From positions 685,222 through 749,221 of the forward strand of contig JAAOMT010000659.1 in assembly GCA_016748015.1 (NCBI GenBank): 64,000 bases of DNA. Direction: 5' to 3'. This document shows positions 16 through 56,922 of this stretch, one piece after another (the first letter of the stretch is position 1; each line of letters opens with the position of its first letter). Source of the DNA: Geosiphon pyriformis uo1 (Eukaryota > Fungi > Glomeromycota). Under the pieces are notes generated by a model. That model worked only from the letters and a program-made list of their open reading frames with translations. It did not search any database and was not told where the DNA came from. The position numbers and the translations under genes were made by a program.

Positions 16-660
16 TTAAGTTTCAACTGTAACATCATCCTTTCCAAAGAGATTGAGCTTCAGTGAAATCAAGCTATTTATGGTGTAATCTATTAGAAGA
101 GTTTTATCTAACTCAAAGCTAACTAGTTTGTTGAAGTCTTTTGTGGATAAGGTATATAATACTTGAGGTAAAATGAGTTTTGTATTCAAGAAACCAAATC
201 TTTGTATTAGAGTTTTGGCTCTTTTAGCAATAGTTAAAACTCTTGGGACATCTAACCATATAATGCCCAAAATTTCTGTCTGTATCTCTAAAGTTGTTTT
301 TTTCATGAGTTTCATATTTTTTATAATTTCACCAAAGTAACCATAGAGTTCTAATTGCCTGCTATATGACAAGTTTTTGTTTATAGATAAGATTTTTTAA
401 AGTGTTTTCCCAATTGTGTTAGAAAGTGAGAGTATAGCTGCTATTATACTTTCCAACAAATATTTATCTATTTTACTACCAATTATTTCTCTTCTGATAG
501 TAGTTTTCTTTGGTCTAATAACAGTATGTGTTTCACTGTTATCTGTTATGGTGGTTTGTTTTCCAATGGTTAGAGTAGTATTTGGATAGTTTTTGATCCA
601 ATACTTATGAAGAGTATAGAAGGCATTTTGAATGTTTTGATCCAGAAAATAATTGTTCAT
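16..660 (-). pseudogene. Family A ORF3 (unknown ~218-aa protein), copy A1
   Basis: ORFs 397-660 and 16-372 are in frame, split by one premature stop; homologous text in A0, A2 and A3; the ORF runs into the LTR. Confidence 0.85.
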
Positions 661-3741: not shown

Positions 3742-4467
3742 TGTTATGAGTTGGAGTAACAAGCTAACAGATAGCAAGGGAAAACAGGATTGTAGGGTGA
3801 TGGAAATAATCAAAGGGGAATTCAACTTTAAAGAGCGAATTTGAATGAGTATAGATTCAATGTGCAAGATCAGTTTCATAGAATATCTCAGTCACTATTT
3901 TTTTCAAAGGTAACTGGGGAATCTGAAGATAGAGGGATAGTCCATACTGTTAACAATTGATCACCACTAGTATAATTCTATGCCTTACATTGGTGCTCTT
4001 AGAATTCAATATCAGGTATCAACTTGTGCTTTTTAGTCATGTTTATTTAAATAATCTTCAAATGCTACAATTATATATGTCAAAAAAAAGCCAACAAGTA
4101 ATCTTTTACCTTTAAAATGTTCAGATACTTGAAGGTAGAGAAAGAAAAATTAGCAATAAAAGAAAGATTGAGATGAAAGTTGTTATTTTATTTATTTTTG
4201 ATTATTTAGATGTTTGTTATTAAATGCTTTTCTACAGCTAAGAGATTTATCACTTATATAGCTGTCAAAAATGGTCAATGATCAGGTTAATGATCAGGTC
4301 AATAATTAGGTCAATGATCAGGTCATTGATCAGGTCAATGATTAGGTTAACAGTCAGGTCATTGATCAGATCAATGATCACTTTCTAAAAATAGTGTGGC
4401 TAATCATATGACATCAGTGGCTAATACATGTAATAATTAATAAAAACTATGAGTTTCAACCATAATA
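3742..4467 (-). repeat. A2 3' LTR
   Basis: Near-identical to 10696-11404; contains the 12-bp GATCAGGTCAAT array and TATATAA on the minus strand. Confidence 0.92.
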
Positions 4468-7400
4468 TCATTCTCTCCAAAGAGATTGAGCTCCAGCGAA
4501 ATCAAACTATTTATGGAATATTCTAATTGAAGAATTTTATCTAACTCAAAACTAACTAGTTTGTTAAAGTTTTTTGTGGATAAAGTGTATAGTACTTGAG
4601 GTGAAATGAGCTTTGTATCCAAAAGACCAAATTTTTGTATAAGAGTTTTGGCTCTTCTGGCAATGATCAAAACTCTTGGGACATCCAACTGTACAATGCC
4701 CAAAATTTCCACTTGTTTTCTTCATGAGCTTCATGTCTTTTATGATTTCACCAAGGTGATCATAGAGCTCTAATTGTCTTCCATATGACAAGTTTTTGTC
4801 TATGAGCAAGATTTCTTTAATCGTTTTTCCAATTGTGGTGGAAGATACAAGTATTGCTGTTGTTATGCTTTCCAACAGATACTTATTCTTTTTGCTACTA
4901 ATTTTTTCTCTTCTGGTAGTTGTTTTCTTTGGTCTGATAACAGTATGAGTTCCACTGTTGTCAGTTATTGTGGTCTGTTTTCCAATAGTCAAGGTAGCAT
5001 TTGGATGGTTTTTGATCCAATACTTATAGAGAGTATAGAAAACGTTTTAAATGTTTTGATCCAGAAAATAATTGTTCATGTTGATTAAAGATACCTCTGT
5101 TTTGAGAATGGTGCATTTATTATACTTGGTTTTTGCTAATCATTTGGGTTGGTATTACCACAACTGATAACCAATCAAGTCATTTGTAATATTTCTTAAG
5201 TTGTGTGTTATGAACAGGTTGATCATTAAAGATTGTTCCAGATTGATCTTGAAGAATATAAGAACTATTGTTCAAAACTTTTTTGACTATAAAGAGTTCT
5301 TTCCACCGGCTAGAGAATTTATCACCATAAACATTGTCTCTGTCTGAACGGTATTCTAATACCAAGTCACCAACACTTAAAGAAAGTGTTTTATAGGTTT
5401 TCTTCTTTTTAAGCTTTTTTTGAAACTGTTTTATCTTTTCTAAAGCAACTATTCGTGCTTCTACCAATAAGTCAAGAATGGTACCAAGTCTTTTTTGCAA
5501 AATGTCTTTGTAATTTGCTATTGTGATCTTTTCAAAGGGTATTGTCTCAATGTTAGTTTCTATTAGTAGTGTTGTCATGCATCCATAGAGCAGATAAAAA
5601 GGTTCATAACTTGTTATGTCATGATTCACAGTTCTATAAGCAAACAAAGCTGAAGGCAGTACTTTGTTCCATAAATTTGTTTCTTCATTTGTTTTGGTTA
5701 AGATTTCACACAGTGTTCTATTAAAACGTTCCACTAGGCCATTTGTTTAGGGGTGATAAGGGGAGGAAAGTTTGTGATGTATTCTTATTTTTCTACAAAG
5801 TTCTTCAACCAGTGTACTGAGAAAAGCTTTTTCTCTATTAGATAAAAGTTCTCTGGGGCAGCCATGATGGCAGATGATATCTTCATAAATGAAATTGGCT
5901 ATTAAGACTGCACTTTGTAAGATAGTCAGTAGCTGTGATAATGTATCTGTTGTCATCAGGGGTTATTGTTAAGGGTCCAACAACATCTATACCAATTCTG
6001 TCAAATGGTTGACCAACAGAGATTGGATGGATATCTTCTTTTTTATTGGGTTTTCCTCTTCTTTGGCAGGTATCACAAGTTTTAATGTACTCAGCAATAT
6101 CTTTTTCCAAGGTAGGCCAATAATAGTAAGCTAGAGTTTTCTGAATTGTTTTAGTCTTTCCAAAATGTCCAGCTAATGGATCAGTGTGCATGTTATAGAT
6201 CACAATTTCTCTTTTTTCAAATCTTATAACTCTTTAGAGGCAGTCAGGATCTTTTCTATTTCTTTTGTATAATTGGTTTTGGCAGATTAAATAAAAATTT
6301 AATTGTTTATGCAAATGTTCTCTTTGTTGTCGAGTGTATTTCAGTAAGTATTGTCCTTTACCCAAAAATTCTATTAAGGCAGAGTAGTTGTCCAAGTCCA
6401 TTATCATGTTTGTTTGTGGGAAAGTTACTAATAATTAGTTTGGTTTGGTTTGAGGTGGTTGTACTGTCACTTAGTGGTAAGTTTGGAAAGAATGTTAGCA
6501 TTTTGATGATTAGCTCCTTTGCAATGTTGAATATTATAGTCAAATTTGTTCAAGTGGAGTATCCAGCAAGTTAATCTTTTGTGTTCTAGCTTCTTTTTGT
6601 TGCACAGCCAAACCAAAGCTTGGTGATTTGTTACTACCAAGAATTTGGCACCAAGAAGATATTTGTTCTAATAACTAGTAGTTCATACTACTGCCAGACA
6701 TTTTTGTTCAGTCACCAAGTAGTTCTGCTCTGCTGGTGAGAGAGTTCTACTGGCATATGCTATGGCATGTTTTTTGTCATTTTCATTTTTTTGGAATAAA
6801 ACAGCTCCAAGTCCATAGCCAGATGTATCAATGTGGAGGATGAAAGGTTGATCTAGATTAAGTTGCTTCAGAATTGGTTTAGTGACTAGTTTTTTCTTTA
6901 GAGTTTCAAAAGCTTTTTGTTGGTGTGTGTCCCAATAGTAGTTGACGTTTTTCCTGAGTAGCTGATTAAGTAGAGCAGCTATTTTGGAGAAATCCTTGAC
7001 AAATTTGTGATAATAGGAAGCCAAACCAAGGAAAAAGCATAGTTCATGAACATTCATTGGTTGTCTAATGTTCTGGACTTTTTCAACCTTAGCTGGGTCA
7101 GGAAAGATTCCATCTTTTGTGATAAGATGACCAATGAATTAGGTGAATTGTCTTTCAAAGAAAGATTTAATCAGGTTGATCTTGAGATCTGCATTTCTAA
7201 GAAGATCAAAAACCTTTTGCAAATGTTTAAGGTGTTCATCCCAGGTTTTTGAGTACACTATTATATTGTTCAGATAGACCAGAACAAAGTTTTCTTTCAC
7301 TAATTCAAATACTTTATCTATTAAGCATTAAAAAGTGGGAGGGGCATTAGTGAGACCAAAAGACATGACTGTGAATTCATAGATACCATACTTGGTAATG

Positions 7401-10695: not shown

Positions 10696-11404
10696 TGTTA
10701 TGAGTTGGAGTAACAAGTTAATGGATAGCAAGAGAGAACAGGATTGTAGAATTATGGAAATAATCAAAGGGGAATTCAACTTTAAAGAGCGAATTGAATA
10801 AGTATGAATTCAATGTGCGAGATCAGTCTCATAAAATATCTCAGTTGCTATTCTTTTCAAAGATAACTGGGGAATCTGAAGGTAAAGAGATAGTCCGTAT
10901 TGTCAACAATTGATCACCACTAGTATAATTCTATGCTTCACATCAGTACTTTTAGAATTCAATATTAGGTATCAACTTGTGTTTTTTAGTCATGTTTATT
11001 CAAATAATCTTCAAATGCTACAATTATATATGTTAGGAAAAGGCCAACAAATAATCTTTTATCTTTAAGATGTTTAGATACTTGAAGGTAGGAAAAAAGA
11101 AATTAGTGATAAGAGAAAGATTGAGATAAAAGTTGTTATTTTATTTATTCTTAATTATTCAGATGCTTGTTATTACATGCTTTTTTACAGCTAAGAGATT
11201 TATCACTTATATAGCTGTCAAAAGTGGTCAATGATCAGGTCAATGATCAGGTTATTGATCAGGTCAATGATCAGGTCAATGGTTAGGTCAACAGTCAGGT
11301 CATTGATCAGATCAATGATCACTTTCTAAAAATAGTGTGGCTAATCATATGACATCAGTGGCTAATACATGTGATAACTAATAAAAACTATGAGTTTCAA
11401 CCAT
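10696..11404 (-). repeat. A2 5' LTR (terminal bases displaced to 21534-21537 by element B)
   Basis: Direct repeat of 3742-4467; PBS adjacent. Confidence 0.92.
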
Positions 11405-12261
11405 TGTTACTCATAGAATATAGAAAATATAGTATTATTAGTTAGTAGATATTAGCCAATTAGATGTAGACGTAGTAAATGTGGAATTCCAGGATTTCTC
11501 TTAAAGGAATTGCAGGATTCCAGGAATTTCAAAATTCCCCAATGAGGAATTGCAGGATTCCAGAATTCCAGAAATTCCAGGATTCCTGTCACAAGGAATT
11601 GAAGAATTGAGAAATCTCAATTATGTATATATAGCAATAGGATTAGAAGCTAAAAAGACAGACCTCTCAAGTTTAGATTTAATCTAAGCAACTCTTCAAA
11701 TCACAATTATCTAATAAATAACTATTTGTTATCTTAAATCTATTTCCACTATTAACACTTTATGTTGATAGTAATCGACACTTAACCACACTAGAACAAT
11801 AGCTCTTAATCATGGCTATTGACAGAATACTAACTTGCAAATCACCTTGGCTTATTTCTTTTCTTTCTTTATTTTCTTTTCTTTTCTTTATTTTTTTGCT
11901 TTGATTTTATTGTTGTTTACTAACTCTATTGAGGATTAACGCACAGGACACTGACGTCAGGATAAACATGACTGGTAAAAGACCCAGGAATAAAGGTAGA
12001 ACACTCGATTGAAGATAGCTTACCAGGAGGAATACTGGCCACCAAGCTGAGAAAGAAATTGACAAAACTGCAGTTTCAGAAAGCTACAAATAAAACTATC
12101 ACCATTGAATCTCTGTTTATTATACAAAGAATTCAACTAAACTCTTCAGATACAAATCCTTTAGGCACAAACCTTCAGATTACTATCAACTGCAATTAGA
12201 TTTGAGTACCAAGTTATGGATTTTTTATTTAACCCAACAACAGAAATAGTCACTTGTAACA
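11405..12261 (+). repeat. B 5' LTR
   Basis: Direct repeat of 20641-21529; GGAATTCCAGGATT-like internal repeats precede TATATATA. Confidence 0.94.
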
Positions 12262-12263
12262 TT

Positions 12264-12280
12264 TGGTGCTCCCTATGAAG
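12264..12280 (+). promoter_or_regulatory. B primer binding site (same tRNA as family A)
   Basis: TGGTGCTCCCTATGAAG, 2 nt after the LTR end. Confidence 0.8.
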
Positions 12281-12281
12281 T

Positions 12282-15200
12282 ATAATTCTACAGAGAACTA
12301 GCACCAACAAGAACAAACCAAAAGTGACAAAATCAGAAAATATAGGAGCAAACCATTTAGGATTTGCGAAATCCTTGTTTCAACAATACAGCCAACAATT
12401 AGGATTAAACAGTAATCATTACCCAGCCGAATCAGCCTTCAATTTCTATGTCAATGACAAAATCACTGAATGCTTAGGAGGAACAGTTAACATTGAAGCA
12501 GCAAGAGAAAACTTTTACACAGAATTATTCCAACACACCAACTTACCAAGGAACTATAGTTTCACACCAATAATCAGAGAAATCAACCAAACTATTAAAA
12601 AGTACACTCAACAACAATTTCCTATTACCTATGTAAATAAAGGCAAAAGAAGGTTACAAACACCAGCAGTAACGCCTAAAGGGATACAACTACCAACCTG
12701 GAAAAAACAAAGAATTGAATCCCTATCATATCCATCATATCATTACACACCTGAAAACACTATCAATATTTCATCTGCAGGTGCGTCCACACCAAATGCA
12801 ACATGAACATTTGGACGATTCTCATTCCAAAGTAAACAAAGGAAAGTGGAGTTATTAGGACCATACGGTAAATATTTTGAAGGATTTAAATCGTGATTAC
12901 CAACACCATCAGGAATTTAATCACTGCTACCTCAACCAGACTTTGGAACTGCTACTCCGTAAGAACTATTTGAAGAAGAAGAAGAAGAGGAATTGGAAGA
13001 TCAAGAATTTACTTACCAAAATCTGATCCTTGAAAACCCAGAATTTGAAACCCCAAACATTCAAACTCAGCGAGAAAATCCAGAAATCGAAATCCTGAAT
13101 ATTCAAACACCACAAAATCAAAACCTTGAAGTAATTAATCAGCACTTACCTCCAGTTATCATCATCAATCAACCACCAGTTGAACCAATTGGCCAGCTCA
13201 TCCAAACACCAAACCAACAAAATCAACAATCATCTCCAGTACTGTCTTAACAACAACAACTTCTACTACAGCAACAACAACAAATGGCATATGCACCAAT
13301 TGCGAAGCTCGACAAATTTACTGGCAAAGAGAATGACACACAAGTTTGGCTAAATAATGTAGAAAAAGCCATTGCAGCCAATGGATGGAATGACACCAGA
13401 GCCATGCAAGCCATACCCTATTTTTTTAAGGATATAGCGGACTCATGGTATCAAAGTCTGGTTGACAAACTCCAAGATTTCAACACCTTCAAACTAGAAT
13501 TTTTAAGATACTTTAGCAATAACAACAGCATCAACAGATTAGCCAACACTTTCACTACAATTAAACAAGAAGAAACTGAAGCAGTTACCACATATCTGGG
13601 ATGCTTCCATAGAAATCTGCAACAAATTCAAGCAATTGATGCTAATTATTTCACAGCACCACAAATTTTCAATCAATTCATCCATGGCCTGTACAGTAGT
13701 ATCCTGCAACATGTACACCCATTGCATCCAGCCATTCTCCAGGACACAGTTACACACGTCAGAGATTTTGAATCTGCCAAATTAGAAGCCAATCACGCCC
13801 ATGCCGTGAACCTAGTGATAAATAGATTATCTGAATTGGATTCCAAATTGAAACAATTCAGTGATTCAATTAATTAGAAATTAGAGGGACACTTAGCTGA
13901 CAATTGCGCAATTTATCAACCACCACAATAATGCAATAATCCCAGAAACGTGAATCATTTCCAAAATCAGTCACGTCTATCATCATCATTAGCAGCACCT
14001 AATCAGCCGTGGCAGCCAGAAACACGTGTTTGTCACAACTGTGGTAAACAAAGACACATAAGAGCAGACTGCAAATTTTATAGCAACAATTCACGATCGG
14101 AAAATCAATATCAAAACCTTGATTGCAGATTTCAAACTCAGAATTGTTACCCAAATCAAAACCAATATCAAACCACTTACCTGCCAATGATGCAGCAACC
14201 AATCTATTAATCGCAGCCACCAGTAATCTATCAGCTGCAACCCCAAATAATTTATCAGTCCTAACAACCAATTCAAACACCACCCCAAAACTTTACTCAA
14301 ATGACATCAGGAAACCCAAGACCTAGAAGCACTCAAAACTAGAGATCGGCAATGATTGTTCATCAACTGATCCCCAGCTCCTCTTACCAACCATCAGGCT
14401 TTCAACAATAGAATTTGGGTACTGGTTCCATCCAAAACCCAAATTCCCAGAACTACTTAAGTCTTCTGGTTACTTCAGAAGATGCCCAAACCAACAAACC
14501 GGAACTCAACCAACAGCAGCCACCTACCAACAATATACCTCCAGCAACTGTCACAAACGATGAATTGTTAGCAGTGATTTTTCCATTTGAACTCAAAGAA
14601 TCATCCTGCACACCATTATTCAGTGGTGCTGCCCTTGAAGAAAAACCAATCACTGCCATGTACACTGATGCAAAAGTCGATGAACACACCATTAAATTCA
14701 TTCTTGACAGTGGTTCAGCAGGCAGCATTATCACACAACAACTTATGGATCAATTAGGTCACCAAGTTGATTGAACTGCCAGTGCTAGAATTATCACTGC
14801 TGATGGTGCCACAAAAACACCTATTAGTGAGATAGATGATTTTCCTATAGAAATTAACGGTATCATAGTACCCATCAAAGTTCTAGTAATGAATGCCACT
14901 CAATACCAAGCCCTAGTTGGTAATGACTGGCTGTCCAAAACCAATGCCATGCTTAATTGGACGACTCAAGAATTAATATTCAGCCAGAATGGGCAACACA
15001 TGTGAGTACCAGCAACATGTGGCCACTTCAAGGCGACCAATACCACAGCACCACTAATTGACTTTGAGGAAGAGAAGCTGAAACCTATCTGGAAAGCATA
15101 CCAAGTGTTGTGGGCCAATATCGATCACAATAAACTGCTGCCAATACTCGCCTGAGATGATAACAGGAAAGAAAAACAGAAGGAAAAACTTACCTAGGAA

Positions 15201-18200
15201 ACTGATGACCTAACATAAACTGACAACAATGAGAGTGAACCGACTTCCAGCTGGGAATGGGAAAAAAACAAAGAAGATAAAGGAAAAGGGAAAGAAAAAG
15301 AAGAAGAGACCACCCAAATTACCATCACTTATAATACCTACACTATACCATAACGATCTATCTATCATCGACTTAAGCTTATATGCGTCGATTGTGGCAA
15401 AAAATTGTTGTCAATAGGCACATGCTGTGGTGATAATGAGAAATATTCAATGGCAACTAAGTTCTATTACCACCCATGCATCCTTGAACACTTTGGGAGA
15501 CCAGAATGTGTAGGAAAATGGGACAACCAATCATGCTTAGCTTGTAGAGAGACTCTTTTTGACGAAGGAATGTGGAACAACATTTCTAAACATGAAGGAA
15601 TGTACAATGTATTGTGTCAATACATGATCCTCATCAGCAACTGGATACGAAAAGGGACACCAATAGAAGCCACTTGGAGAAGAGCCATACAGTGATTGGA
15701 CAGTTGTCCACATGATGACAACAAAATATGGTGAATAATGACCGCAAAAATCGAGAGCACATCACTAAAAAAGATTAGGGAGATCAAAAACAACCCACCA
15801 GAACCCATAGAACTGGACTGAGACCCAAAACCAGTCATAAATCTGTTAGATCCAGAACAATTCTATAAACACTACCAGGAATTAGCACTTACTAGAGAAG
15901 AACAAGAGCAATATTTGGAAGAAATAAATACCCAACTATGTGACCACTGTTTGATTCCATATGACTTTCAGTATTGTAATGAGTGTGATCTCATTTACAA
16001 TCCACCACCATGCATGATCTACATAATCCCCGAAGAGAAAGAACCAATCAGCAGCTGTGCATCAGAATCGGAATTGATTTTCAATCCCAATTCAAACTCC
16101 CACAAAAATGACAATGAAAACACTAGTTCCAGCTTCATTCAAAATGGCATTAACAACAACAACAATTCCAACTCAGATTTAAACTCAGATTTAAACTATG
16201 AACAATATATCGTGCTCCCCGACCTCACCAAAGAGCAGGAACTTAAATGGTTCAATAATAACAATGAAGGTATTATGCCAAAATGCGTGCATGATACAGA
16301 TGTCAGATTTGATCTGAGATATTCTGGAAAAGAGGCCATCAAATTGGAACCATATTCACACATTTGCATTGATCTAAAAATAGCTTTAGAAATTCTAGCA
16401 ACAACAATGATTCAACTAGCATTTAGGAGTAATTTAGCAAAAAGAGGAATAAACATCAGAGGAGGAATAATTGATACAGGATACATAGAAAATATTATTG
16501 CTATGCTACAAAATAACTCAGAAAAGACCTATATAATAGAGCCCAACAAAAAGATAGCACAGACAATATTCCTGCCTCTGGTTAGAGTAGCTTAGTTAGT
16601 ATCAATGAAAAAGAGGGAGAAATTAGAAATAACAGCGAGAGGAATACAGAGATTCAGATTGACAGGTAGAGTAGATGTACCAGTCAATATGACAGAAGAA
16701 GAAATTGTTGACCAAGGAGAAATTATCTCAATGGGTCAAGCAATTTTTATTCCACCATATGGCCAGTACATGATAAGGATAAAGTGGGAAGTAAAAGAAC
16801 AGAATCAGATTTTTGAAGCAGAATCAACCCTTTGTGAATCAGAAGAGATTGAATTCATCAATCTCCATATACCAGCCAAAGATTACAGCCATATCAAAAT
16901 TTCCATCTACAATAACACAGGAAATGTCATAGTAATACCAGCCGAAACTACCATTGAATACTTAAACACTGAAATAGAGAATCAACCACCAAACATTATT
17001 CCAGACTTTCCACAGTTTTGTGAATATGTCAATATCACATCACAAACAATATATAGACGAAGCAAATGTTATTTGCTCCAACCAGAACAATTGGAATAAA
17101 TAAACATAGGAAACTTAGATCCACTCTAACATATGTAACTTAAGATATTGCTCAACAATTTTAATGACATCTTTGCCAGCAAAAACAAGTTTGGCTGAAC
17201 TAATATTATCTAGCATCAAATTAAGACTGGAGATGCAATACCAATTAAACAGTGAGCATACAGAGTATCACTAGCCAGCCATGAAATTATCCATCAAGAG
17301 ATCAACTAAATGCTTAACAATGGGTTAATTCAGCTATCAATAAGCCCATGGTTATCACCAGTAGTACTCATCCATAAGAAGAATGAAAAAATCTGATTTT
17401 GTATGGACTACAAGAAACTCAATAATGTAACTCATGGAGACAACTATTCAACTCCATGGATACAAGAACTATTTAACACTTTTGGTGGAAACAAATAGTT
17501 CTCAATGTTAGATTTAGATAGTGATTACTGGCAAGTAGCCATAGATCCAGCTGACAAAGAAAAAACAGCATTCACCACAAGAGAGAGAAACTTTAAGTTT
17601 GAAGTTATGCCATTTGGCTTAACCAATGCTTCAGCGACTTTCCAATGGCTAATGGAAATCATTTATACTGGTTTATTGTGGAAATCAGTAATTGTATACT
17701 TGGACAACACCAATGTATTCTCAAAAACATTTGATGATCATTTTTATCATCTTCAACAAGTGTTTAAAAAACTAAGAAGAGCAGGACTAAAGTTAAATGC
17801 AACAAAGTGCTTCTTCGGCAAGACAGAACTAAAATTCTTAGAACACATAGTCAGCAAAGATGGCATCAAAATGGATCCAGAGAAAATAGAGATAGTAAAA
17901 AACTTTCCAGTGCTGACCAATATGATAGAACTGAAATTATTTTTGGGATTCACCAGCTACTATTGATGTTTTATCAAGAACTTTTTCAAGTTAGTGCAGC
18001 CACTCAACCAACTGCAAACCAAGAATACAAAATATGAATGGACAGAAAGTCAACAAGAAGCTTTTAATATTCTGAAAAAAAAGTTTATTCAAGCTCCAGT
18101 ACTGATCTATCCAGATCACAGCAAACCATTCATCATCACTACTGATGCATCCAGCCAAGCATTAGGAGCAGTACTATCTCAGAGAAGACCAGACAGCAGA

Positions 18201-18500
18201 AAACATCCAGTAGCATATGCCAGTAGAGGTTTAACACCAGCCAAAAAGAACTATGGAACACTGGAACAAGAACACTTAGTGATATACTGGGCAGTCATGA
18301 AATGGAAAGAATACTTGAGCCAGAAGTTTGAAGTGTACACAGATTACAAAGGATTAATATTACTCCAAAAACAAGAATTTGGAGATGGAAGACAGTCAAG
18401 ATGGAAAATGGCACTCGCACCATATAATTATACTATACATTATAAAAAGGAAAAAAACAACAGAAATGCTGACAGTTTGTTGCAAATAAGACAAATCTAA
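12282..18500 (+). pseudogene. B gag-PR-Cys-rich-dUTPase-RT-RNase H polyprotein (one frame, many premature stops)
   Basis: ORF fragments at 12324, 12993, 13284, 13950, 14415, 15405, 15915, 16605, 17505 and 17994 are all in the same frame. Motifs: CHNCGKQRHIRADC knuckle, FILDSGSAG protease, YLD(N) RT, TTDAS RNase H. The start is inferred (ATG>ATA at 12282). Confidence 0.9.
16251..16670 (+). pseudogene. dUTPase domain within B pol
   Basis: Decayed dUTPase motifs: D..FDL, RSNLAKRG, GGIIDTGY, KKIAQ, RGIQRFRLTG (from RGxxGFGSTG). Confidence 0.88.
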
Positions 18501-18561
18501 GAACATTTCAATCCAGAAATATAACAAAACCAAAACAAGACTCACAAAAATATAACAAAAG

Positions 18562-19944
18562 ATGAATACACAAAAATATCAACAACTTCAACATTATATA
18601 GATACTTAACAGTTCAAAGAGAAATTATCTCAACCAGAACAAAAGAGGATCAAATGACAATCCAAATATTTTATCACTTACCAAAATATACTTTATTGGA
18701 AAAATAGAAAAGATTCAGATCAGCCAACCAGAATAATTACAGAACCAAAAAAAGAGACAATACTGTTCAACATGCACTCAGATCTAACTGTAGGACATTT
18801 TTATAAAGAAACAACCATAGAAAGAACCAGAAAGAGATACTATTGGCCATCAATATATTCAGACATCATACAATATGTACAAAATTGTGACACTTGTCAA
18901 AAAAGAGGAGGAACAAGACCTAGTAAACCATTAAGACCAATCAAAATGGGACAACCATTTGACCGTATTGGAATCAATTTAGTTAGACCATTGACAATTA
19001 CCAGCAGAGACAACAGATATATAGCAGTAGCCATGAACTACCTTACAAAATGGCCAGAAGCAAAAGCAATTCAAAGAGTGGATGCAAAATCCATTGCTGA
19101 ATTTATCCATCAAGATTTGATTTGTCGACATGGATGTTCAAAAGAACTATTATCAGACCAAGGAACCCATTTTGTGAATAGAACATTAGCAGAACTAAGC
19201 CAAAGATTCGGAATTAAGAGACCACTATTATCACCATACCATCTACAAACCAATGGATTAGTTGAAAGATTTAATAGAACATTGTGTGAAGCAATAGCAA
19301 AACTCAGCCAAGAAAACCAAGATGAATAAGATTTGTTCATACTATCAGTATTATTGGCTTATTGAACAATGAAGCAAAACACCACACAAGCAACACTATT
19401 TGAATTGATATATGATAGAACAGCAACATTACCAGTTGAGATAGAGGTTACCACATATTCAACTGAACCAATAACAGAAGAGAATTTCCAAGAAACATTG
19501 TTAAGAAGAACATATGACTTAATGGAAACATTGAAAAACAAATAAAAAAGAGCAGCTAATAATATACAAAAGTCACAAGAGAAACAGAAAGAAAGACATA
19601 ATAATCAACTACCAGACAAACCAGTTGAATTCAGGATTGAAGACAAAGTACTCTTACATCATACCAAAGCAGAAAAACAATAAAGTGAAAAATTTGATCC
19701 CAAATGAGACGAACCATTTCACATAGAAGAAATTCTAGGAAATAGAGCTTACAAATTAAGATTGAATAACAAAATCTTGACCAAAACAGCACATAAAGAT
19801 CGACTGAAACCATACCACCATATAGCATCATCATCTACCAGTAATATTTCACAATTAGGAGTACAAAGAATACTAGTCCAACCAGATAAGATTCCATGAG
19901 ATCTGAAACCAATCATTATTATTAACAATAACACGTCCAATTGA
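18562..19944 (+). pseudogene. B integrase, separate ORF
   Basis: ATG at 18562, out of frame with pol; HHCC (MHSD..GHF..CDTC), SDQG, NGLVERFN and a GPF-like motif; no chromodomain seen. Confidence 0.88.
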
Positions 19945-19967
19945 TCAACAAAAGAATATATAAGAAC

Positions 19968-20627
19968 ATGGTTGACATGACAGAAGAGATCAGAAAAATG
20001 AAAATTACAGACAATATCCATTCACTAGCCCAACAAATTTTTCAATTAATCTAACACCAGGAGATGAAAATTATAATCAATCAACAAACCATTTGTTACA
20101 AAAATATGGCAAAGATACCACAACACAAAACACAGAAAAGACTTGAAAATGTTGTTAACAAGATCATAACCAAGATAAAATTGGCCATAAAAGAACAACA
20201 AATAGTCGGATTACACCAAGAACTTACCAGAAAAACTTGGACTTGGTGAATACAACAATTTCCGAAAAACTATTGTCATTTCCACTTGGGACAACACATA
20301 AATATCCAGAATTTGTACACCGACAAAACAAAACAGTTATTTGACACAATAATACTAAGACAACTAAAACAATTTGTGGGAAGGAACAATCTAACCACAC
20401 AAGCTTGAGTTATTTACCAGCTATATATGGGATTTCAAGACCGACCAGAAATCTTACTCAACACAGCAATGGATACAGTTACAAGTAATCAATTGAGAAA
20501 AATGACCAATGCCCAATTTGAAGAACTACAAACTAAAATAACACAAGTAATACTTGAAAAAGAAGTTCAAGAAATAATTCAAGAAGGAGAATTAAAAAAA
20601 TTAAATTTCAACAGAGCTCAATATTAA
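19968..20627 (+). pseudogene. B ORF3 (unknown ~219-aa protein)
   Basis: ATG at 19968 is in frame with ORFs 20064 and 20427, broken only by stops consistent with C>T; ends at the PPT. Confidence 0.8.
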
Positions 20628-20640
20628 AAGAAGGGAATAA

Positions 20641-21529
20641 TGTTACTTATAGAATATAAGAAATATAGTATTATTAGTCAGTAGATATTAGCCAATTAGA
20701 TGTAGACATAGTAAATGTGGAATTCCAGGATTTCTCTCAGAGAAATTGCAGGATTCCAGGAATTTTAGGATTCTCTGACGAGAAATTGCAGGATTTCAGA
20801 ATTCCAGGATTCCTCTCACCAGGAATCACAGGATTCCAGGAATTCCAAGATTCCTGTCACAAGGAATTGAGGAATTGAGAAATCTCAATTATGTATATAT
20901 AGCAGTAGGATTTGAAGCTGAAAAGACAGACCTCTAAAGTTTAGATTTAATCTAAGCAACTCTCTAAATCACAATTATCTAATAAATAACTATTTGTTAT
21001 CTCAAATCCATTTCCATTATCAACACTTCATGTTGATAGTAATTGACACTTAACCACACTGGAACAATAGCTCTTGATTATGGTTATTGACGGAATACTA
21101 ACTTGTAAATCACCTTGGCTTATTTCTTTTTTTTTTTTCTTTTTTTTTCTTTTTTTTATTTTTTTGCTTTAATTTTATTGTTGTTTACTAACTCTATTGA
21201 GGATTAACATGCAGGGCACTGATGTCAGGATAAATGTGACTGGTAAAAGACCCAGGAATAAGGATAGAACACTCGATTGAGGATAGCTTACTAGGAGGAA
21301 TACCAGCCACCAAGCTAAGAAAAAAATTGATGAAACTGTGGTTTCAGGAAGCTACAGATAAAACTATCACCATTGAATCTTTGTCCATTATACAAAGAAC
21401 TCAACCAAACCCTTCAGATACAAACCCTTCAGGCACAAACCTTCAGATCACTATTAACTGCAACTAGATTTGAGCACTAAGTTATGGGTTTTTTATTTAA
21501 TCCAACAACAGAAATAGTTACCTGTAACA
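20641..21529 (+). repeat. B 3' LTR
   Basis: Preceded by the polypurine tract AAAAGAAGGGAATAA; repeat of the 5' LTR. Confidence 0.94.
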
Positions 21530-24500
21530 CCATAACAATACCATTATGTCGTCCAAGTAAACCAGAACAAGGTTTTTTTTTACTGATTTAAATACTTTAT
21601 CCATTAGGTGTTGAAAGGTGGGAGGAGCATTGGTAAGACTAAAAGGCATGACTGTGAATTTATAGGTGCCATACTTGGTAATAAAGGCAGTTTTTTTTCT
21701 GCTTTCTGAATTTATTTCTACTTGCCAGAATTCAGCAGTTAAGTCAATGGTTGAGAAGAAAGCAGCACCATTGAATTTATCTAGCATTGCATCAATTTTA
21801 AGAAGTGAGTACATGTCTCTTATAGTGATGGCATTTAGTTGGTAATAGTCAACACAGAAGTGTAGGGTTCTATCTTTTTTGGGTATCACTACAACTGAGA
21901 AAGCCTATTTACTCTTGGTTTCTTGTATAAATCCAAGATTTTTCATTCAGTTTATTTCTTTCTTGATGAATTTATCATTGTATTAATTGGATTGATAAGG
22001 CTTCAAATAAATGGGACAAGTTTCTTTGGTGGTAATAATGTGTTGTATCACATGGGTTCGTCCAGAGATGTCACTTTCTTTTGAAATAACTGGATTATTT
22101 CTAGCCAACAGATTTTTAATGTCTATTTTTTTTTCTTCAAGAGAAGATTCTCTTTGTTCTATGGCTAGTAATTGGATTTCAGGTGGTTCATTCTCAAAGG
22201 ACTTTTGTACTTCTTTAAGTTCTTTTCAAGGTATCAAGCTAATTGGTTCCCAATCTTTATAATTGATCAGGCAGAATTTGCATTCATCACTTGGTAAATA
22301 CAAAGATTTATTATACCAGCACTATACACAAAGACCATGTTACCAATAGCTGTATTTGGCTTTTTTGCCAGGTTTTCTGTCAAAAGTTTTTCTGAGAATA
22401 TTATAGTAGGGCCAGCAGATTAGCTTGCCATTTACTATGATTTCTTTTTTGTCAGCTTTAATATTGTCCAGTGGCTTGCCATTGCTGGTAAAGATAGTAT
22501 AAGTGAGTTCAGCAGTTTCTTCTTGTTCTTCTTGATCTTCATCATCACTCTCATTATCATCTGATTTATCTAATTGTTTTTCTTTTTGATTTTGCTTGGG
22601 TACTGGAGAGGTTGTCCAGTGACAGCACTTAACTACAATGGGTTTTTCACTATATCTGATGATTAGCTTACAAAGCTTATAGTCAAATAGCACTTTAGCT
22701 TTCTTAAGCCACTTATTGTCAACAATTATGGTGTACTCTTTTGCTTTAGATACTTCCATGTCAGTTTCAATGCTGATACCATTAATGTGAACAGAAATAG
22801 CTTTGGCTATGCCCAGGCCTTTTTTCTTGTTACCATGTATGTTGGTCATTGGTCTTGTAGAAGGCTCATCAATCTTTCTGCCAATTGTTTCAAAAAAATG
22901 TTTGTCAATTACACTAATAGATAATCCACTGTCTAGGATCAGATCAATAAAGTAACCAGCCACTTGGGCTTTACAAATCAGAGAGGTGACATTGCTGTTA
23001 TCAGCAAGTCTAACTTGGCAAAGACATTTGTTAGTTTTTGGTGTCTTCTTCTTTAGTATTAATGATTTGCAAAAATTTTTTCTGAACTGTGGATGGGTTA
23101 TCAGTTGGCCAAATGTAATGTGTGCTGGGGTTTCCATGAGATCTTTAACAACAGAATAAGGTCCAAATTTTTGTACAATTTCTGGGGGTTCCAACTTTGG
23201 AGGATTTTTAAAAACCTTAGTCTTTAGTGGCTCATTGTTATCAGCAGATAATTTGGATGCTTTGTTTGGATCTAAAATGAAATCAATCTTGGCTTTTTTC
23301 TTCTTTCTGGTTGATTCAGAGATGTTAATTGCTAGTTCATTTATATCATAATTATCATCAGTTAGGTTAAAAGCATAAAAGAGGTTTTTTTCTGGTTGGC
23401 TTGCACTCTTACTCTTTGGAGGTGCGCCTACCAGTTTAAAGGCTAATAAACAGTGGCTTTAACTAAGAGATTCTTTTCAAAAAAATTGATGTTAGCATGA
23501 TTGGTTCTTTGATTAAGGATATTGTTGTTAATAATTCTGTTGTTTTGATTGTCATTGTTTCTAGGAGTTAAAGGAAGCAAGGGAGGATTGTTACAATCTC
23601 TAGAAAAATGTCTAGTTAATCCACAGTGGTAACACACAGATGGGCCACAATTTTGTTGTCTTTGATATGGGAGTTGCTGTGATTGATTAAAACGGGATTC
23701 AAATCTGGGTCTTTGGGTTTGTTGATTCTCTCTGACAGCTTGGGCTAAGAGTTCCAGTAACCAGGCAAGATTAGCTGTGAGTCTATCTATTAACTGTTCA
23801 TTTGGGTCTTGAGTTTGGGCAGCAAAAGAGGTAGCAGCCATTTGAAAAGCAGGAGCCATTACAGGAACAGGAGCAAAAACTGAAAGTGTGAATCTTAGGT
23901 ACATCCTTTAATTGTCTTCTATTCTCTGAGCAAATTCAATGGCCATATCTATTGTGGGATTATCTTTCAAGACCAGAAGGGGCCAAAGAGCATATAATAG
24001 ATCAGTTCTTAGTCTTTTTGTGAAGAAATATATTTTCTGCTCTTCTGTTCAATTTTTTTTAGAGTCTACTTATTCAATAAGTTTTTTTATTGCTTTGACA
24101 TATTCTGTCACAACCTTACCAGGGCCTTGAGTTCTTTTTTCTAATTTTATATGCCATTTTGAGATTAAGATAGAAGTTCTAAATTTCATTTTAAACTGGG
24201 TAATAAAAGAGATGTTGTCTTCTCCAGCATTTGCTAGTGCCCATTTAATGATTCTTTGCTGAGCATTGGCATTGGTTTCTTGTAAGAACCAAGTAGCAAG
24301 AAAGCCTTAAAAGTAGCCACCAACAATTTGGAACTTGTATTCATTATCATATTGGTTTGCTGTGGCAGCTTTCTCAAAATTATCCAGTCATTTAATTGGA
24401 TCTTGAACATCACCTTTGAATAATGATAATGGGATGTTGTTTCTTTACCCTAAAGCAGTTTGTATATCTTAAAGGGCAATTAGAATGTTTTGTTGTAGAG

Positions 24501-25033: not shown

Positions 25034-25728
25034 TGTTATGGGTTGGAGTAACAAGCTAACAGATAGCAAGGGAGAACAGAATTGTAGGGTAATAAAAATA
25101 ATCAAAGAGAATTCAACTTCAAAAAGCAAATTGAATAAGTATGGATTCAATGTGCAAGATCAGTCTCATAAAATATCTCAGTTGCTATACTTTTTAAAGA
25201 TAACTGGAGAATATAAAGATAGAGAGATAGTCTGTACTGTTAACAAATAATCATGTCTGATATAATTCTATGCCTCATGTTGGCGCTCTTAGAATTCAAT
25301 ATCAAATATCAGATGTGCTTTTCAGTCACGTTTTATTCAATAATCTTCAAATGCTGTAATTACATGTTTCAGGAAAAGATAAAAAATAACCAATAAGTGA
25401 TCTTTTATCTTTTTAGATACTTGAAAATAGGGAAAAGGAAATTAGTAATAAGAGAAGAATTGAAATGAAGTTGTTATTTTATTTCTTTTATTTCTTTGAT
25501 TCTTACATGTTTTTTTTACAGCTAAGAGATTCATCACTTATATAGCTGTCAAAAGTGGTCAATGATGAAGTCAACAACTAGATCAATGATCAAGTCAATG
25601 ATCAGGTCAATGGTCAGGTTATTGATCAGGTCAATGATCACTTTCTAAAAATAGAATTGTTAAATTATGTGACATTAATGGCTAATACATGTGATAATTA
25701 ATAAGAAGTATAAGTTTTAACCATAACA
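25034..25728 (-). repeat. A1 5' LTR
   Basis: Family A LTR; its end matches window positions 1-34. Confidence 0.9.
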
Positions 25729-28700
25729 GTATAATGCTCAAAATTTTTGCCTGTATTTCTGAAGTTGTTTTTTCATGAGTTTTATATCCTCTATGATTTC
25801 TCCAAGGTAATCATATAGTTCTAATTGCCTTCTATATGACAAGTTTTTGTTTATGGGTAAGATTTCTTGAAGTGTTTTTCCAATTGTGCTAGAAGATAGA
25901 AGTATAGCTGCTATTATACTTTTCAACAGATATTTATCCATTTTGCTACCAATTTTTTCTCTTCTGGTGGTAGTTTTTTTTGGTCTAATAACAATATGTG
26001 TTCTACTGTTATTAGTTATAGTGGTTTGTTTTCCAATGATCAGAGTAGCATTTGGATAGTTTTTAATCCAATACTCATGAAAAGTATAGAAAGTGTTTTG
26101 AATGTTTTGATCCAAAAAATAATTGTTTATGTTGATTGAAGATACCTCTGTTTTGGGAATGATGCATTTATTTATACTTGATTTTTGTTGATTATTTGAG
26201 TTAGTATTACCACAACAGGCAACTAATAAGGTTGTTTATAATATTTCTTGAGTTGTGTACCATAAACAGAACGATTATTGAAGATTGTTACAGATTGATC
26301 TTAAAGAATATAAGAACTATTGTTCAAAACTTTGTTGACTATAAAAGATTCTTTTCATTGGCTAGAGAATTTATTACCATAGACATTGTCTTTGTCTGAA
26401 TAGTATTCCAATACCAAGTCATCAACACTTAAAGAAAGTGTTTTATAAGTTTTCTTTTTCTTAAGCTTTTCTTGAAACTGTTTTATCTTTTCAAAAGCAA
26501 TTATTCATGCTTCTACCAAGGAGTCAAGAATAGTATCAAGTCTTCTTTGCAAAATGTCTTTGTAATTTCCTATTGTGATTTCTTCAAAAGGTATTGTTTC
26601 AATGTCAGTTTCTATTAGTAGTGTTGCCATGTGTCCATAGAGCAGATAAAAAGGTTCATAACTTATTATGTCATAATTCACAGTTCTATAAGCAAACAAA
26701 GCTGAAGACAGTACTTTGTTTTATAAGTTTGTTTCTTCACTGGTTTTGGCTAAAGTTTTACATAGTGTTCTATTAAAATATTTTACTAGGCCATTTGTTT
26801 GAGGGTGATAAAGGGAGAAAAGTTTATAACATATTTTTATTTTTCTACAAAGTTTTTCAACCAGTGTACTGAGAAAAGCTCTTTTTTTATCAGATAAAAG
26901 TTTTTTAGGGCAGTCATAACAGCAAATGATATTTTTATAAATGAAATTGGCTATTAAGACTGCTGTTTGATTAGAAGTGGCTTTTGCTTCTACCCACTTT
27001 GTAAGATAGTTAGTAGCTGTGTTAATGTATCTGTTGCTATTAAAAGTTATTGTTAAAAGTCTAACAACATCTATACCAATTCTGTTAAATGATTGACCAA
27101 CAGAGATTAGATGAATATCTTCTTTGTGATTGGATTTGTCTTTTCTTTGGCAGATGTCACAGGTTTTGATGTATTTAGCAATGTTTTTTTTTCAAGATAA
27201 GCCAATAATAGTGAGTTAAAGTTTTCTGAATTGTTTTTGTTTTTTCAAAGTGTCTAGCTAATGAGTCAATGTGCATGTTGTATATTACAATTTCTCTTTC
27301 TTCAAATCTGATAACTCTCTGAAAGTGGTTAGAATCTTTTCTATTTCTTTTATATAGCTGGTTCTGGCAAATCAAATAGAAATTTAATTGTTTGCACAAA
27401 TGTTTTCTTTGCTGTCGAGTGTATTCTGGTGGGTATTGTTCTTTACTCAAAAATTCTATTAAGGCAGAGTAGTTATCCAAGTCCATTATTGTGTTTGTTT
27501 ATAAAAAAGTTACTAATAATTAAGTTGGTATGGTTTGAGAGATTGTATTATTACTGGATGGTAAGTCTAAAGAGAGCATTGGCATTTTGATAATTTGCTT
27601 CTTTGTGGTGTTGAATATCATAATCAAATTTATCCAAGTAGAGTATTTAGTGAGTTATTTGTTTGTGTTCTAGCTTCTTTTTATTATGCAGTCAAACCAG
27701 GGCTTAATGATCTGTTACCACTAAGAATTTTGCACCAAGAAAATATTGATCCTAGTAACTAATAGCCCAAACTACTGCTAAACATTCTTATTCAATAACT
27801 GAATAGTTCTTTTCTGCTGGTGTGAGGGATCTACTGGCATATGCTATGACATGTTCTCTGCCATTTTCATTTTTCTGTAAAAAAACAGCACTAAATCCAT
27901 AGCCAGATGCATCAGTATAGAAAATAAAAGATTGGTTCAGATCAGATTGCTTGAAAATTGGTTCAGTGACAAGTTTTTTCTTCAGAATTTCAAAAGTTTT
28001 TTGTTAATAAGCGCCCTAGTAATAATTAACATTTTTTCTGAGTAGCTAATTAAAAAAAAAGACAATTTTGGAAAAATCTTTAATAAATTTGTGATAGTAA
28101 AAGGTCAAACCAAGGAAAGAGTGTAGTTTAAGAATATTCATTGGTTGTCTAATGTTTTGAACTTTTTCAACTTTAGCTAGGTCAGAGAAAATTCTATCTT
28201 TTGTAATAAGATAACCAAAGAACTGAGTGGATTGGCATCCAAAGAAAGATTTGATTGGGTTGATTTTAAGGCCGACATTTCTGAGCAGATCAAAAATTTT
28301 CTGTAAATGTTTAAAGTATTCATTCCAGGTTTTTGAGTAGACTATTATGTCATCTAAGTAAACCAGAACAAAGTTTTCTTTTACTGATTCAAATACTTTG
28401 TCTATTAGGCATTGAAAAATAGAAGGGGCATTGGTGAGACCAAAAGACATAACTGTGAATTCATAGGTGCCATACTTGGTAATGAAAACAGTTTTTTTTT
28501 TGCTTTCTGAATTCATCTTTACTTGCCAGAATCTAGCAGTTAAGTCAATAGTTGAGAAGAAAGCAGCACTATTGAATTTATCTAGCATTGCATTAATTTT
28601 GGGGAGTGGGTATATGTCTTTTATAGTAATAGTATTTAATTGGCAGTAGTTAATACAGAAGCATAAAGTTCCACTTTTTTTGGATACCACTACAACTGGG

Positions 28701-31700: not shown

Positions 31701-32486
31701 AGATTATTTTTGTTGTGTGCTTCAAAGTGTTTTTCTAATTGTTATGGCAGATATGAATAATCACTTATATAATAGAAAACAAGGTGAATTTTGACAATCT
31801 CACAGGAAGCACTACTTTTATGTTATGGATTAGAGTAACAAGCTAACAAATAGCAAGAGAGAACAAGATTGTAGGATAATAGAAATAATCAAAGGAATTT
31901 CAACTTTAATAAGCAAATTGAATAAGTATGAATTTAATGTGCAAGATCAGTCTCATAAAATATTTCAGTCACTATACTTTTCAAAAATAATCAGGAAATT
32001 TGAAAATAGAGGAATAGTCCATACTGTCAACAAATGATCACATCTGATATAATTCTATGTCTTATGTCAACACTCTTAGAATTCAATATCAAGTATTAGA
32101 TGTACTCTTCAATTACATTTTACTTAATAATTTTCAAATGTTGCAATTACATGTTTCAGGAAAAGAGTAAGGAATAATCAACAAGTAATCTTTTATTCCA
32201 AGATATTCAGATACTTGAATGTAGAGAAAGGGAAATTAATGATAAGAGAATAATTAAGATAAAAGTTGTTATTTTATTTATTTTATTTTTTTGATTTCTA
32301 TATGCTTTTCTATAGCTAAGAGATTCATTGCTTATATAACTGTTAAAAGTAGTCAATGATCAGGTCAATGATCAGGTCATTAATCAGGTTAATAATCATT
32401 TTTTAAAAATATAGTGGCTAATTTATATAACATTAGTGGCTAATACATATGATAATTAATAAGAAATATAAGTTTCAACTGTAACA
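25729..32486 (-). mobile_element. Ty3/Gypsy family A copy A0 (host of A1; 3' part lies outside the window)
   Basis: Resumes mid-ORF3 at GTATAATGC; IN, RH, RT, PR and gag remnants; PBS; 5' LTR 31821-32486. Confidence 0.9.
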
Positions 32487-40542: not shown

Positions 40543-41026
40543 TGTTGTTCTGACTAGTCTTAGTGTCTGGTCGCGTGTAGTGAAGGCATGATTCACACCT
40601 AGTTTAGATCATTTATATGATGTATAGCACTAGGTGGCATTTGGACTTCACTCGTTAAACTTTAAAAAAAAAAAAAAAAAAATTCAAATACATATTACTT
40701 TTAGCCAACTAATAATCTATTTTTAGTTCAAAAAAAATCTGTATAAATTCTTAATTCTAAAAAAAAAGATTTCAAAAACCAATAAGTGTTTTTATTAAAC
40801 TGAATTTTATAATAATAATAATAATATTTTTTTAATTTACAAAGTTTAAATAATTTGTTATTTTATTAACTTAATTTTAAATAACAGATTATTTGTTAAT
40901 ATTATTGTTAAATACTTTTTTAAAGTAATTGATAAAAAAATTAATAAATCTTTAATTTAGCTTATAATTAATATATATAATAATAAAGAAAAAGTTTTAA
41001 TATAATTAAAGCTATTTTGTTTATAT

Positions 41027-42889: not shown

Positions 42890-43546
42890 CTAATAAAAAC
42901 TTTGGGTTTCAACCATAACATCATCCTCTTCAAAGAGATTGAGCTCCAGCAAAATTAAGCTATTTATGAGATAGTCTATGTGAAGAGTTTTGTCTAACTC
43001 AAAACTAACTAGTTTGTTGAAGTCTTTTGTAGACAAGGTATATAATACTTGAGGTGAAATAAGTTTTGTATCCAAGAGACCAAATCTTTGTATAAGAGTT
43101 CTGACTCTTCTAGCAATGATCAAAACTCTTAGAACATCTAATCGTATAATGCCCAAAATTTCCACTTGTATCTCTGAAGTTGTTTTCTTCATGAGCTTCA
43201 TGTCTTCTATGATTTCACCAAGACAACCATAGAGTTCTAGTTGTCTTCCATATGACAAGTTTTTGTCTATAGGCAAGATTTCTTGTATTGTTTTTCCAAT
43301 TGTGCTGAAAAGTGAAAGTATCACTGCTGTTATGCTTTCCAGCAGGTATTTATCCATTTTGCCACCAATTCTTTCTCTTCTGGTAGTTGTTTTCTTTGGT
43401 CTGATAACAGTGTGAGTTCTACTGTTGTCTGTTATGGTGGTTTGTTTTCCAATAGTCAGAGTAGTATTTGGATAGTTCTTGATCCAGTACTCATGAAGAG
43501 TATAGAAAGTGTTTTAAATGTTTTGATCCAGGAAATAATTGTTTAT
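42890..43546 (-). pseudogene. A3 ORF3
   Basis: Homologous to A1 ORF3; start ATG>ATA; stop lies inside the LTR. Confidence 0.82.
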
Positions 43547-43587
43547 GTTGATTGAAGATACCTCTGTTTTGGAAATGGTGCATTTAT

Positions 43588-44901
43588 TTATATCTGATTT
43601 TTGCTGATCATTTGGGTTGGTATTACCACAACAGGTAACCAATTAGGTTATTTGTGATATTTCTTGAGTCGCATGTCATGAACAGGACAATCACTGAATA
43701 TTGTTCCATATTGATCTTGTAGGATATATAAACCATTGTTCAAAACTTTGTTGACTATAAAAAATCTTTTCCAGTGGCTGGAGAATTTATCACCATAAAC
43801 ATTGTCTTTGTCTGAACGGTATTCCAAAACTAAGTGACTAACACTTAAGGAAAGTGTTTTATAGGTCTTTTTCTTTTTGAGCTTCTCTTGAAATTGTTTT
43901 ATCTTTTCAAAGACAATTATCCGTGCTTCTACCAATGAGTCAAGAATGGTACCAAGTCTTCTTTGCAAAATGTTCTTATAATCTCTTATTGTTATTTCTT
44001 CAAAAAGTATTGTTTCTATATTTATTTCTATTGGTAGAATTGCTATTTGTCCATAGAGCAGATAAAAGGGTTCATAACTTGTTATGTTATGATTCACAGT
44101 TCTGTAAGCAAACAAAGCTGAAGGCAATATTTTGTCCCATAAGTTGGTTTCTTCACTGGTTTTGGCTAGGGTTTTACATAGTGTTCTATTGAAACGTTCC
44201 ACTAGGCCATTTGTTTAGGGGTGATAAGAGGAAGAGAGTTTATGACATATTCCCATTTTTCTGCAAAGTTCTTCAACCAGTGTACTGAAAAAAGCTCTTC
44301 CTCTATCAGATAAAAGTTCTTTGGGGCAGCCATGGTGACAGATAATATCATCATAAATGAAATTGGCAATTGAGACTGCTGTTTGATCTGGGGTGGCTCT
44401 TGCTTCTACTCACTTTGTAAGATAGTCGGTAGCTGTGATAATGTATCTGTTGCCATCAGGAGTTACTGTTAAAGGTCTAACAACATCTATACCAATTCTG
44501 TCAAATGGTTGACCAACAGAGATCGGATGGATATCTTCCTTGCGATTGGGTTTTCCTCTTCTTTGACAGGTATTACAGGTTTTGATATATTCAGCAATGT
44601 TTTTTCCAAAGGTAGGCCAATAATAGCAAGCTAAAGTTTTCTGGATTGTTTTTGTTTTTCCAAAGTGTCCAGCTAATGGATCAGTGTGCATATTGTAGAT
44701 CACAATTTCTCTTTCTTCAAATCTGATGACTCTCTGGAGGCGGTCAGGATCTTTTCTATTTCTTTTATATAACTGGTTCTGGCAAATCAAATAGAAATTT
44801 GATTGTTTGTGCAAATGTTCTCTTTGCTGTCGAGTATAATCTGGTGGGTATTGTCCTTTACCCAAAAATTCTATTAAGGCAGAGTAGTTGTTCAAGCCCA
44901 T
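43588..44901 (-). pseudogene. A3 integrase, separate ORF
   Basis: MGLNNYSAL start; HHCC, RIGIDVV, NGLVERFN, GPF-like motif. Confidence 0.9.
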
Positions 44902-44965
44902 TATCGTGTTTGTTTGTAGGGGAGTTACAAATAATTAAGTTGGTTTGGTTTGAGAGAGTTTACTA

Positions 44966-49766: not shown

Positions 49767-49855
49767 AGTGGTCAACGACCAGGTCAATGATCAGGTCAAT
49801 GATCAGGTCAATGATCAGGTCAATGATCAGGTCATTGATCAGGTCAACGGTCACT
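49767..49855 (-). promoter_or_regulatory. 12-bp tandem array (GATCAGGTCAAT) in the A LTR U3, just upstream of TATATAA
   Basis: Present with variable copy number in all A LTRs except 42325-42920. Confidence 0.7.
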
Positions 49856-56872: not shown

Positions 56873-56922
56873 TCAAGTTTCAGATTTTCCTTTGACCCAA
56901 AAAGAAGCGTATAATTTGAATC

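Follow-up and report, generated by a model that had tools for sequence, protein, structure and literature searches.

The window analysed here, a 64,000-nt stretch of Geosiphon pyriformis DNA, holds a sense open reading frame (ORF3) between the integrase and the 3' LTR of an LTR element, element B. The initial annotation took this frame for an ancient accessory gene, other than env, that a second LTR family of the window, family A, carries as well. Is it a gene at all, do the two families share it, and what could it do for the elements? The features on which the answer depends are collected in Table 1.

Table 1. Positions of ORF3 copies and surrounding features in the 64,000-nt window
Feature	Position	Strand	Basis or remark
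Element B 5' LTR	11405..12261	+	LTR comparison
Element B gag, protease, dUTPase, RT, RNase H (decayed)	12262..18500	+	Pfam on ORFs
Family B integrase, separate frame, several decay stops	18562..19944	+	stop codon 19942-19944
TATA-like motif, candidate internal promoter, 41 nt upstream of the conserved B ORF3 start	19957..19963	+	
Family B ORF3 frame, 219 codons and stop	19968..20627	+	ORF translation
Element B polypurine tract (PPT), directly 3' of the ORF3 stop	20628..20640	+	
Element B 3' LTR	20641..21529	+	LTR comparison
B-specific U3 array, GGAATTCC/GGATTCC units, candidate ORF3 target	20719..20873	+	predicted; before LTR TATA motif at 20894
Family A ORF3, 218 codons with one internal stop; ATA in place of the decayed start codon	42890..43546	-	
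TATA-like motif 46 nt upstream of the ORF3 start, overlapping the stop codon of the A integrase	43586..43592	-	
Second A ORF3 copy, one internal stop	16..660	-	
Third A ORF3 copy, with a frameshift and a changed TATA-like motif	4437..5079	-	
Fourth A ORF3 copy, 3' part deleted	25750..26130	-	
A-specific U3 array, 12-bp units, before LTR TATA motif	11226..11321	-	
Further A U3 arrays	4273-4380, 25558-25640, 32352-32398, 49770-49847		

The window is a nested stack of decayed LTR elements, and families A and B are both Ty3/Gypsy elements. Element B has TG...CA LTR ends, a target duplication and a PPT; its 3' and 5' LTRs agree in 775 of 857 aligned bases, and Pfam searches of its ORFs gave the domain order gag, then PR-RT-RH-IN. 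A dUTPase sits between PR and RT (16270-16590, Pfam E 4e-11). Its insertion point lies within an A LTR, 8 nt from the LTR end, and the 4-bp duplication CCAT flanks the element (11401-11404 and 21530-21533); the site is compatible with a decayed CpG-centred target. Family A lies on the minus strand and has the layout of B apart from the dUTPase, which Pfam did not detect in the family A ORFs scanned.

Several other features of the window were observed. A Cys/His-rich stretch of B with several CxxC motifs is located between protease and dUTPase (15100-15800), and the part of it that was scanned gave no Pfam match. The primer-site sequence TGGTGCTCCCTATGA is common to B (12262-12285) and A (after the 5' LTRs), where it stands about 8 nt off the LTR end. 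Decayed element remnants at 32500-33900 and 40690-41950 are about 66% like family A and have 10-19% GC; this extreme AT-richness suggests heavy C-to-T decay. A LINE-like (non-LTR) element at 35883-40542 retains endonuclease, RT and RNase H remnants and shows a strong G/T skew. Host-like genes were seen at 53473-54822 and 56920-59696 (a TPR and DnaJ protein; an SH3 protein that may contain a TM segment), and an AT-rich tandem array of about nine copies of a 57-bp unit at 60561-61054.

Among the traits of Ty3/Gypsy elements, an integrase within the Pol polyprotein is missing from B: the RNase H frame ends at a stop (18498-18500) and the integrase follows in a separate frame. For comparison, a third family (C) was reached by scanning metagenome contigs with the integrase core, ORF3 not being used as a query. 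Six loci were found, of which only L004 reaches far enough past the integrase. A stop after RNase H and a new ATG for the integrase were present in B, in all four A copies and in loci L002, L003 and L005. The separate integrase ORF was noted at 18498-18564 for B and near 44910, 27500, 6400 and 2900 for the A copies, behind an A/C-rich spacer of about 60 nt; the 90 nt upstream of the integrase start held no TATAWAW motif in any of the four A copies. ORF3 follows the integrase stop at a distance of 23-66 nt. It was found in all four A copies with an intact integrase 3' end, in B and in L004, where a 160-aa ORF (1411-1890) occupies the same place. The proposed co-occurrence of ORF3 with a split integrase holds for A, B and L004, and the contigs of L001, L002, L003 and L005 end too early to tell.

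The frame first noticed in B was confirmed as one 219-codon reading frame, and the two A frames named with it (42890-43546 and 16-660) are present on the minus strand. In B, three internal decay stops (codons 29, 94 and 147) fall where relatives have Gln or Arg/Trp. The conserved start of B ORF3 is probably the second Met, an ATG at 19998, which gives 209 aa. In 100 gene models of B relatives, 35 start at the second Met, 22 have that Met 7-14 residues in and 43 start elsewhere; diverged B families likewise mostly begin at the second Met. Such starts fit a transcription start site downstream of the first ATG. At the other end, B stops just before the purine tract, while A and L004 cross it into the 3' LTR; A ORF3 terminates about 9 codons inside, and the frame at 42890..43546 reads through the PPT into an LTR that starts at 42920. 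A position before the PPT and 3' LTR, as initially described, is thus correct for B and incorrect for A. The near-equal length of the two ORF3s is partly due to chance: A and B have about 210-218 aa, and family C has about 160 aa.

Searches of protein databases returned many copies. The A ORF3 gave 130 matches among 248 candidates, and all 120 among the matches listed were G. pyriformis hypothetical proteins, the best full-length matches having 85-91% identity. The same Met start was used in 65 of these 120, of which 25 were 213-230 aa long, as judged from gene models and not from experiments. The B ORF3, searched with X at its stops, gave 100 matches among 190 candidates, all of those listed being from G. 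pyriformis.

Family A ORF3 is under purifying selection. The dN/dS values were 0.12-0.35 in all six pairs of the four copies in the window; the same test gave 0.19-0.86 for 12 pairs of A integrases. For the two full A copies the ratio was 0.21 in frame; the remaining two sense frames gave 0.73 and 0.82, and the antisense frames 0.28-1.10. Since the window has only one B copy, selection in B was judged on relatives at about 30-85% identity rather than on pairs of DNA copies; their frames are open and their changes conservative. ORF3 diverges far faster than the integrase, with 15-19% versus 51-55% identity between families.

Among 14 family members we found no TM- or signal-like stretch, the best 19-residue hydropathy being 0.27-1.28 on a simple scale rather than by a dedicated predictor. 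Therefore, ORF3 is not env-like, in agreement with the initial annotation. The proteins have basic patches of 4-7 K/R per 15 residues, but with pI values of 5.7-6.8 in eight of the 14 they are not generally basic. The acidic tail seen in A and C is partly forced because it is read from the purine tract.

Direct comparison of the A and B ORF3s did not connect them. The identity was 15% over 189 columns, BLASTP gave no match, the shuffled pairwise z did not exceed 2.4 in 20 pairs, and cross HMM searches were non-significant. The HMM-HMM alignment that had been suggested as a check was not significant either (hhalign E 0.24, 0.46 and 0.57). The motifs quoted in favour of the likeness blend different copies; for example, B reads A-stop-VIYQLY. 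Still, the C-terminal register that had been set by eye is the one that MAFFT and hhalign produce once family C is added.

Support for the likeness of A and B came only by way of family C. The L004 ORF matched A with E 0.017 and B with E 0.033, with the same C-terminal motif in that register; in the hmmsearch comparison, equally high scores were reached by 123 of 2000 shuffles for A and by 44 of 2000 for B. A mixed ORF3 profile run against 1.84 billion representatives gave 106 matches. These included A- and B-like proteins, two relatives of the L004 ORF (family C), one diverged A relative, and B families of G. pyriformis that have diverged to about 30-40% identity; a further search gave 16 matches among 1187 candidates. 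With the groups enlarged in this way, most C members and the diverged A relatives having been gathered with profiles that contained rows of other groups, hhalign yielded E 0.0074 and then 0.0019 for A-C over 66-68 columns (a score reached by none of 60 and then by none of 50 shuffles), and E 0.0075 for B-C over 66 columns (0 of 60 shuffles as high). In a later B-C comparison the E-value was 0.0047, the match was down to 21 columns and 2 of 50 block shuffles scored as high. When 10 C proteins were combined into a profile, 13 of 18 A/B proteins scored above at least 190 of their 200 shuffles, compared to 1 of 20 unrelated window ORFs used as a control; control profiles against the integrase gave E 0.15-0.82. 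Aligned jointly, the three families show four collinear blocks that span the protein: a helix and hairpin at the N-terminus, then a Y..LG helix and a T/H-A.R helix, and last a motif reading ..LT..F..L.

On these alignments, we consider it likely that the ORF3s of A, B and C form one homologous family. Unrelated genes captured independently at the same position, with motifs that are amphipathic-helix look-alikes, could also account for the absence of significant direct A-B similarity and for 3' ends that differ relative to the PPT, and other Gypsy lineages are described as having taken up different ORF3s repeatedly (PMC5408684). However, an ORF found by synteny, with the integrase alone, matches A and B in the same segment. 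Independent capture also sits poorly with the C-profile test and its controls, with the collinearity of the blocks over the whole length and with the order of secondary structures, predicted alike in A and B at low confidence, so that it seems quite improbable. Together with the dN/dS values in A, the bridge through family C supports the idea of an old shared accessory gene under selection.

How would this gene be expressed? A TATAWAW motif was observed at or just after the integrase end, at -46 relative to the ORF3 start in three of the four A copies (among them 16..660 and 25750..26130; in the copy at 4437..5079 it differs slightly), at -41 in B and at -35 in L004. Such a TATA-box-like motif makes a short transcript of its own likely for ORF3. 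As background, three A interiors, each about 6 kb long, contained 1, 5 and 11 TATAWAW matches, 8.4 kb of B contained 4 and 1.9 kb of L004 contained 2, which corresponds to a chance rate of about 0.4-5% per 26-nt window for a pattern picked after A, B and C had been viewed. Locus L002, inspected afterwards, has a TATA-like motif over the integrase stop; in A and L002 the TAA stop forms part of the motif, so that a chance match becomes more probable. Locus L003 shows a T-rich tail containing a TA run, and no ATG in the approximately 70 nt between the integrase stop and the contig end.

Taken together, we find it rather likely that ORF3 has a short transcript of its own, which would begin at an internal promoter, about 20 nt upstream of the start codon, and end at the poly(A) site of the 3' LTR. 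A spliced RNA, re-initiation or a 3'-end signal are possible alternatives, and the AT motifs at the integrase end could be 3'-end signals. By eye, a plausible splice acceptor before ORF3 was seen only in L004 and none was shared. In three of the four A copies an ATG at -37, out of frame with ORF3, begins a reading frame of 30 codons that extends over the start of ORF3. This ATG lies upstream of a TATA-directed start site and would divert re-initiating ribosomes, which argues against simple re-initiation after the integrase.

Searches for a known fold or family gave no assignment. ORF3 had no match in Pfam, PHROGs or PDB sequences; a match to an already described retrotransposon domain, which would have spoken against a distinct family, was thus not found in these collections, and neither was a known DNA-binding domain. 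AlphaFold2 models built on shallow alignments had pLDDT of 42 and 40. For these low-confidence models Foldseek returned nothing at E 0.001 (A model against PDB, B model against viral structures), and a search of the ESM Atlas gave no interpretable match. Both models have a helix and a beta-hairpin at the N-terminus followed by helices, so the initial description of the protein as helical was half right. As for enzymes, the best GDSL score was E 0.13 in one of 23 members, below the Pfam cut-off; DEDDy and chromodomain gave no match (Pfam; 25 of 27 families listed, plus other Pfam scans). No likeness to a known silencing suppressor was found, and none to Gag or capsid in Pfam. A tblastn search of phages with a C member, the viral contigs and an initial metagenome scan also returned nothing. 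Two candidate relationships gained no support. For DUF1016_N (PF17761, YhcG N-terminal), one C member scored E 0.11 on the Y..LG helix and the motif order is similar by eye, but a profile comparison with seven real members gave E 0.13-0.27, a level that 19-20 of 40 shuffles also reached. A suspected resemblance to hypothetical proteins common in Rhizophagus was not borne out, since such a name was carried by none of the 10 divergent matches looked up.

Each family has its own U3 repeat array directly before the LTR TATA motif; in L004 it consists of TCACAC-type repeats. One A copy has a 3' LTR (42318-42920) without the 12-bp array and a 5' LTR (49250-49938) with it (49770-49847). The idea that a family-specific LTR motif recurs at the internal promoter proved weak: none of the three families had its top U3 6-mer there, and TGATCA, the motif of A, is not A-specific, as it also occurs upstream in B and C.

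A small, soluble protein encoded at the 3' end behind what may be its own promoter, diverging fast beside family-specific arrays, has the layout of foamy-virus Tas. By this analogy, ORF3 would be transcribed from its own TATA promoter at the integrase end and would act as the element's own transcription regulator on the LTR repeat array. As its weakest step, the scheme predicts that ORF3 binds DNA and activates or de-silences the LTR as Tas does. We regard an internally promoted, self-encoded LTR regulator as a possible reading, put forward tentatively and at less than even chances. A wider version, in which foamy-like non-retroviral elements would combine a separate integrase with an internal TATA that drives new, sequence-specific trans-activators co-evolving with the LTR arrays and switching the element on in methylated chromatin, is more doubtful.

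Other roles have to be weighed against the regulator. ORF3 might work in counter-defence, with the internal promoter kept and with host RNAi, DNA methylation or chromatin proteins as its point of action instead of the LTR. Very fast divergence with the frame kept would suit such a role, as would the lack of a detected DNA-binding fold; in the related fungus Rhizophagus irregularis, transposable elements including Gypsy are CG-methylated and yield small RNAs, as described in 10.1101/2021.03.30.436303. On the other hand, ORF3 resembles no known suppressor, divergence within A is under purifying and not positive selection, and the visibly decayed copies of the window mean that any protection was incomplete, which leaves counter-defence an unlikely explanation. 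An adaptor role appears unlikely too. ORF3 would then deliver integrase or RNA to the Gag particle, or accompany the integration complex to the nucleus; the integrase would need such a carrier because it is not part of Pol. This role is suggested by the joint presence of a stand-alone integrase and ORF3 in A, B and L004 and by the closeness of ORF3 to the integrase stop. Yet a stoichiometric partner needs no dedicated promoter, the divergence of ORF3 outpaces that of the integrase by far, and L003 has a split integrase with no ATG shortly behind it (on a contig too short to decide). The DNA anatomy points, if only modestly, to a regulator with its own transcript rather than to an integrase-packaging factor.

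An internal transcript could also serve self-restriction. In yeast, Ty1 p22 is a copy-number control factor made from an internal transcript, and an ORF3 of this kind would agree with the likely internal promoter. It would agree also with the very many copies in hosts; LTR sequence makes up 41.2% of the G. pyriformis genome according to PMC11952901. With no Gag or capsid likeness in ORF3 and with families that have expanded massively, self-restriction is very unlikely.

Known systems place the regulator reading and ORF3 itself in context. Sense additional ORFs (aORF-3S) between pol and the 3' LTR are described for Ty3/Gypsy elements such as Athila and Bagy2 (PMC7264820), and ORF3 qualifies as one by its copies, database matches and dN/dS. 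It resembles the aORF-3S of that paper in position, in sense orientation, in presence in most copies, in being conserved like the element genes and in a function that is open. It differs from them in having no TM segment, in its fungal host, in a TATA-like motif instead of a known splice acceptor, in its place behind a stand-alone integrase and in the lack of any sequence match. Foamy virus Tas/Bel1 has an internal promoter (PMC7390438). ORF3 is likewise small and accessory, sits at the 3' end beside U3 or running into it, and has a TATA-containing candidate promoter in the end of the upstream gene. Unlike Tas, it belongs to an element without env in a fungal host and has no sequence similarity to it that Pfam or PDB sequence searches could find, nor a fold match for the low-confidence models; the likeness in layout is one of analogy and not of membership.

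In Oikopleura, Tor3b and Tor4b express env from an internal promoter. There too the third gene of a Ty3/Gypsy element has a promoter in or just behind the end of pol, but the Tor ORF3 is a membrane glycoprotein and the Geosiphon ORF3 is soluble (PMC4402516 for the Tor elements). The LTR elements of bdelloid rotifers have non-env ORF3s, GDSL and DEDDy, and resemble B as dUTPase-bearing Gypsy-type elements with a non-env third ORF. Their ORF3s are enzymes, whereas the searches placed ours in no enzyme family, and PMC5408684 presents them as family-specific captures, said to be typically spliced.

We conclude that ORF3 stands for a real family of accessory genes that had not been named before and that occupies a known position, with no function assigned. 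The accessible literature searched for additional ORFs of fungal or Gypsy elements, including passages of PMC11952901, PMC3248453 and 10.1101/2021.03.30.436303, gave no account of this family; supplements and repeat libraries may hold elements that carry it. Of the third ORFs known from Gypsy elements, most resemble env, encode enzymes or have no known use. The present family, which matched nothing in the libraries, has been kept across integrase lineages that are about 50% apart, and well over 200 of the 'hypothetical proteins' annotated in G. pyriformis belong to it. The A, B and C proteins and their arrays make three pairs that can be tested against each other. If ORF3 is a self-made LTR switch, these elements would have a circuit so far described for complex retroviruses.
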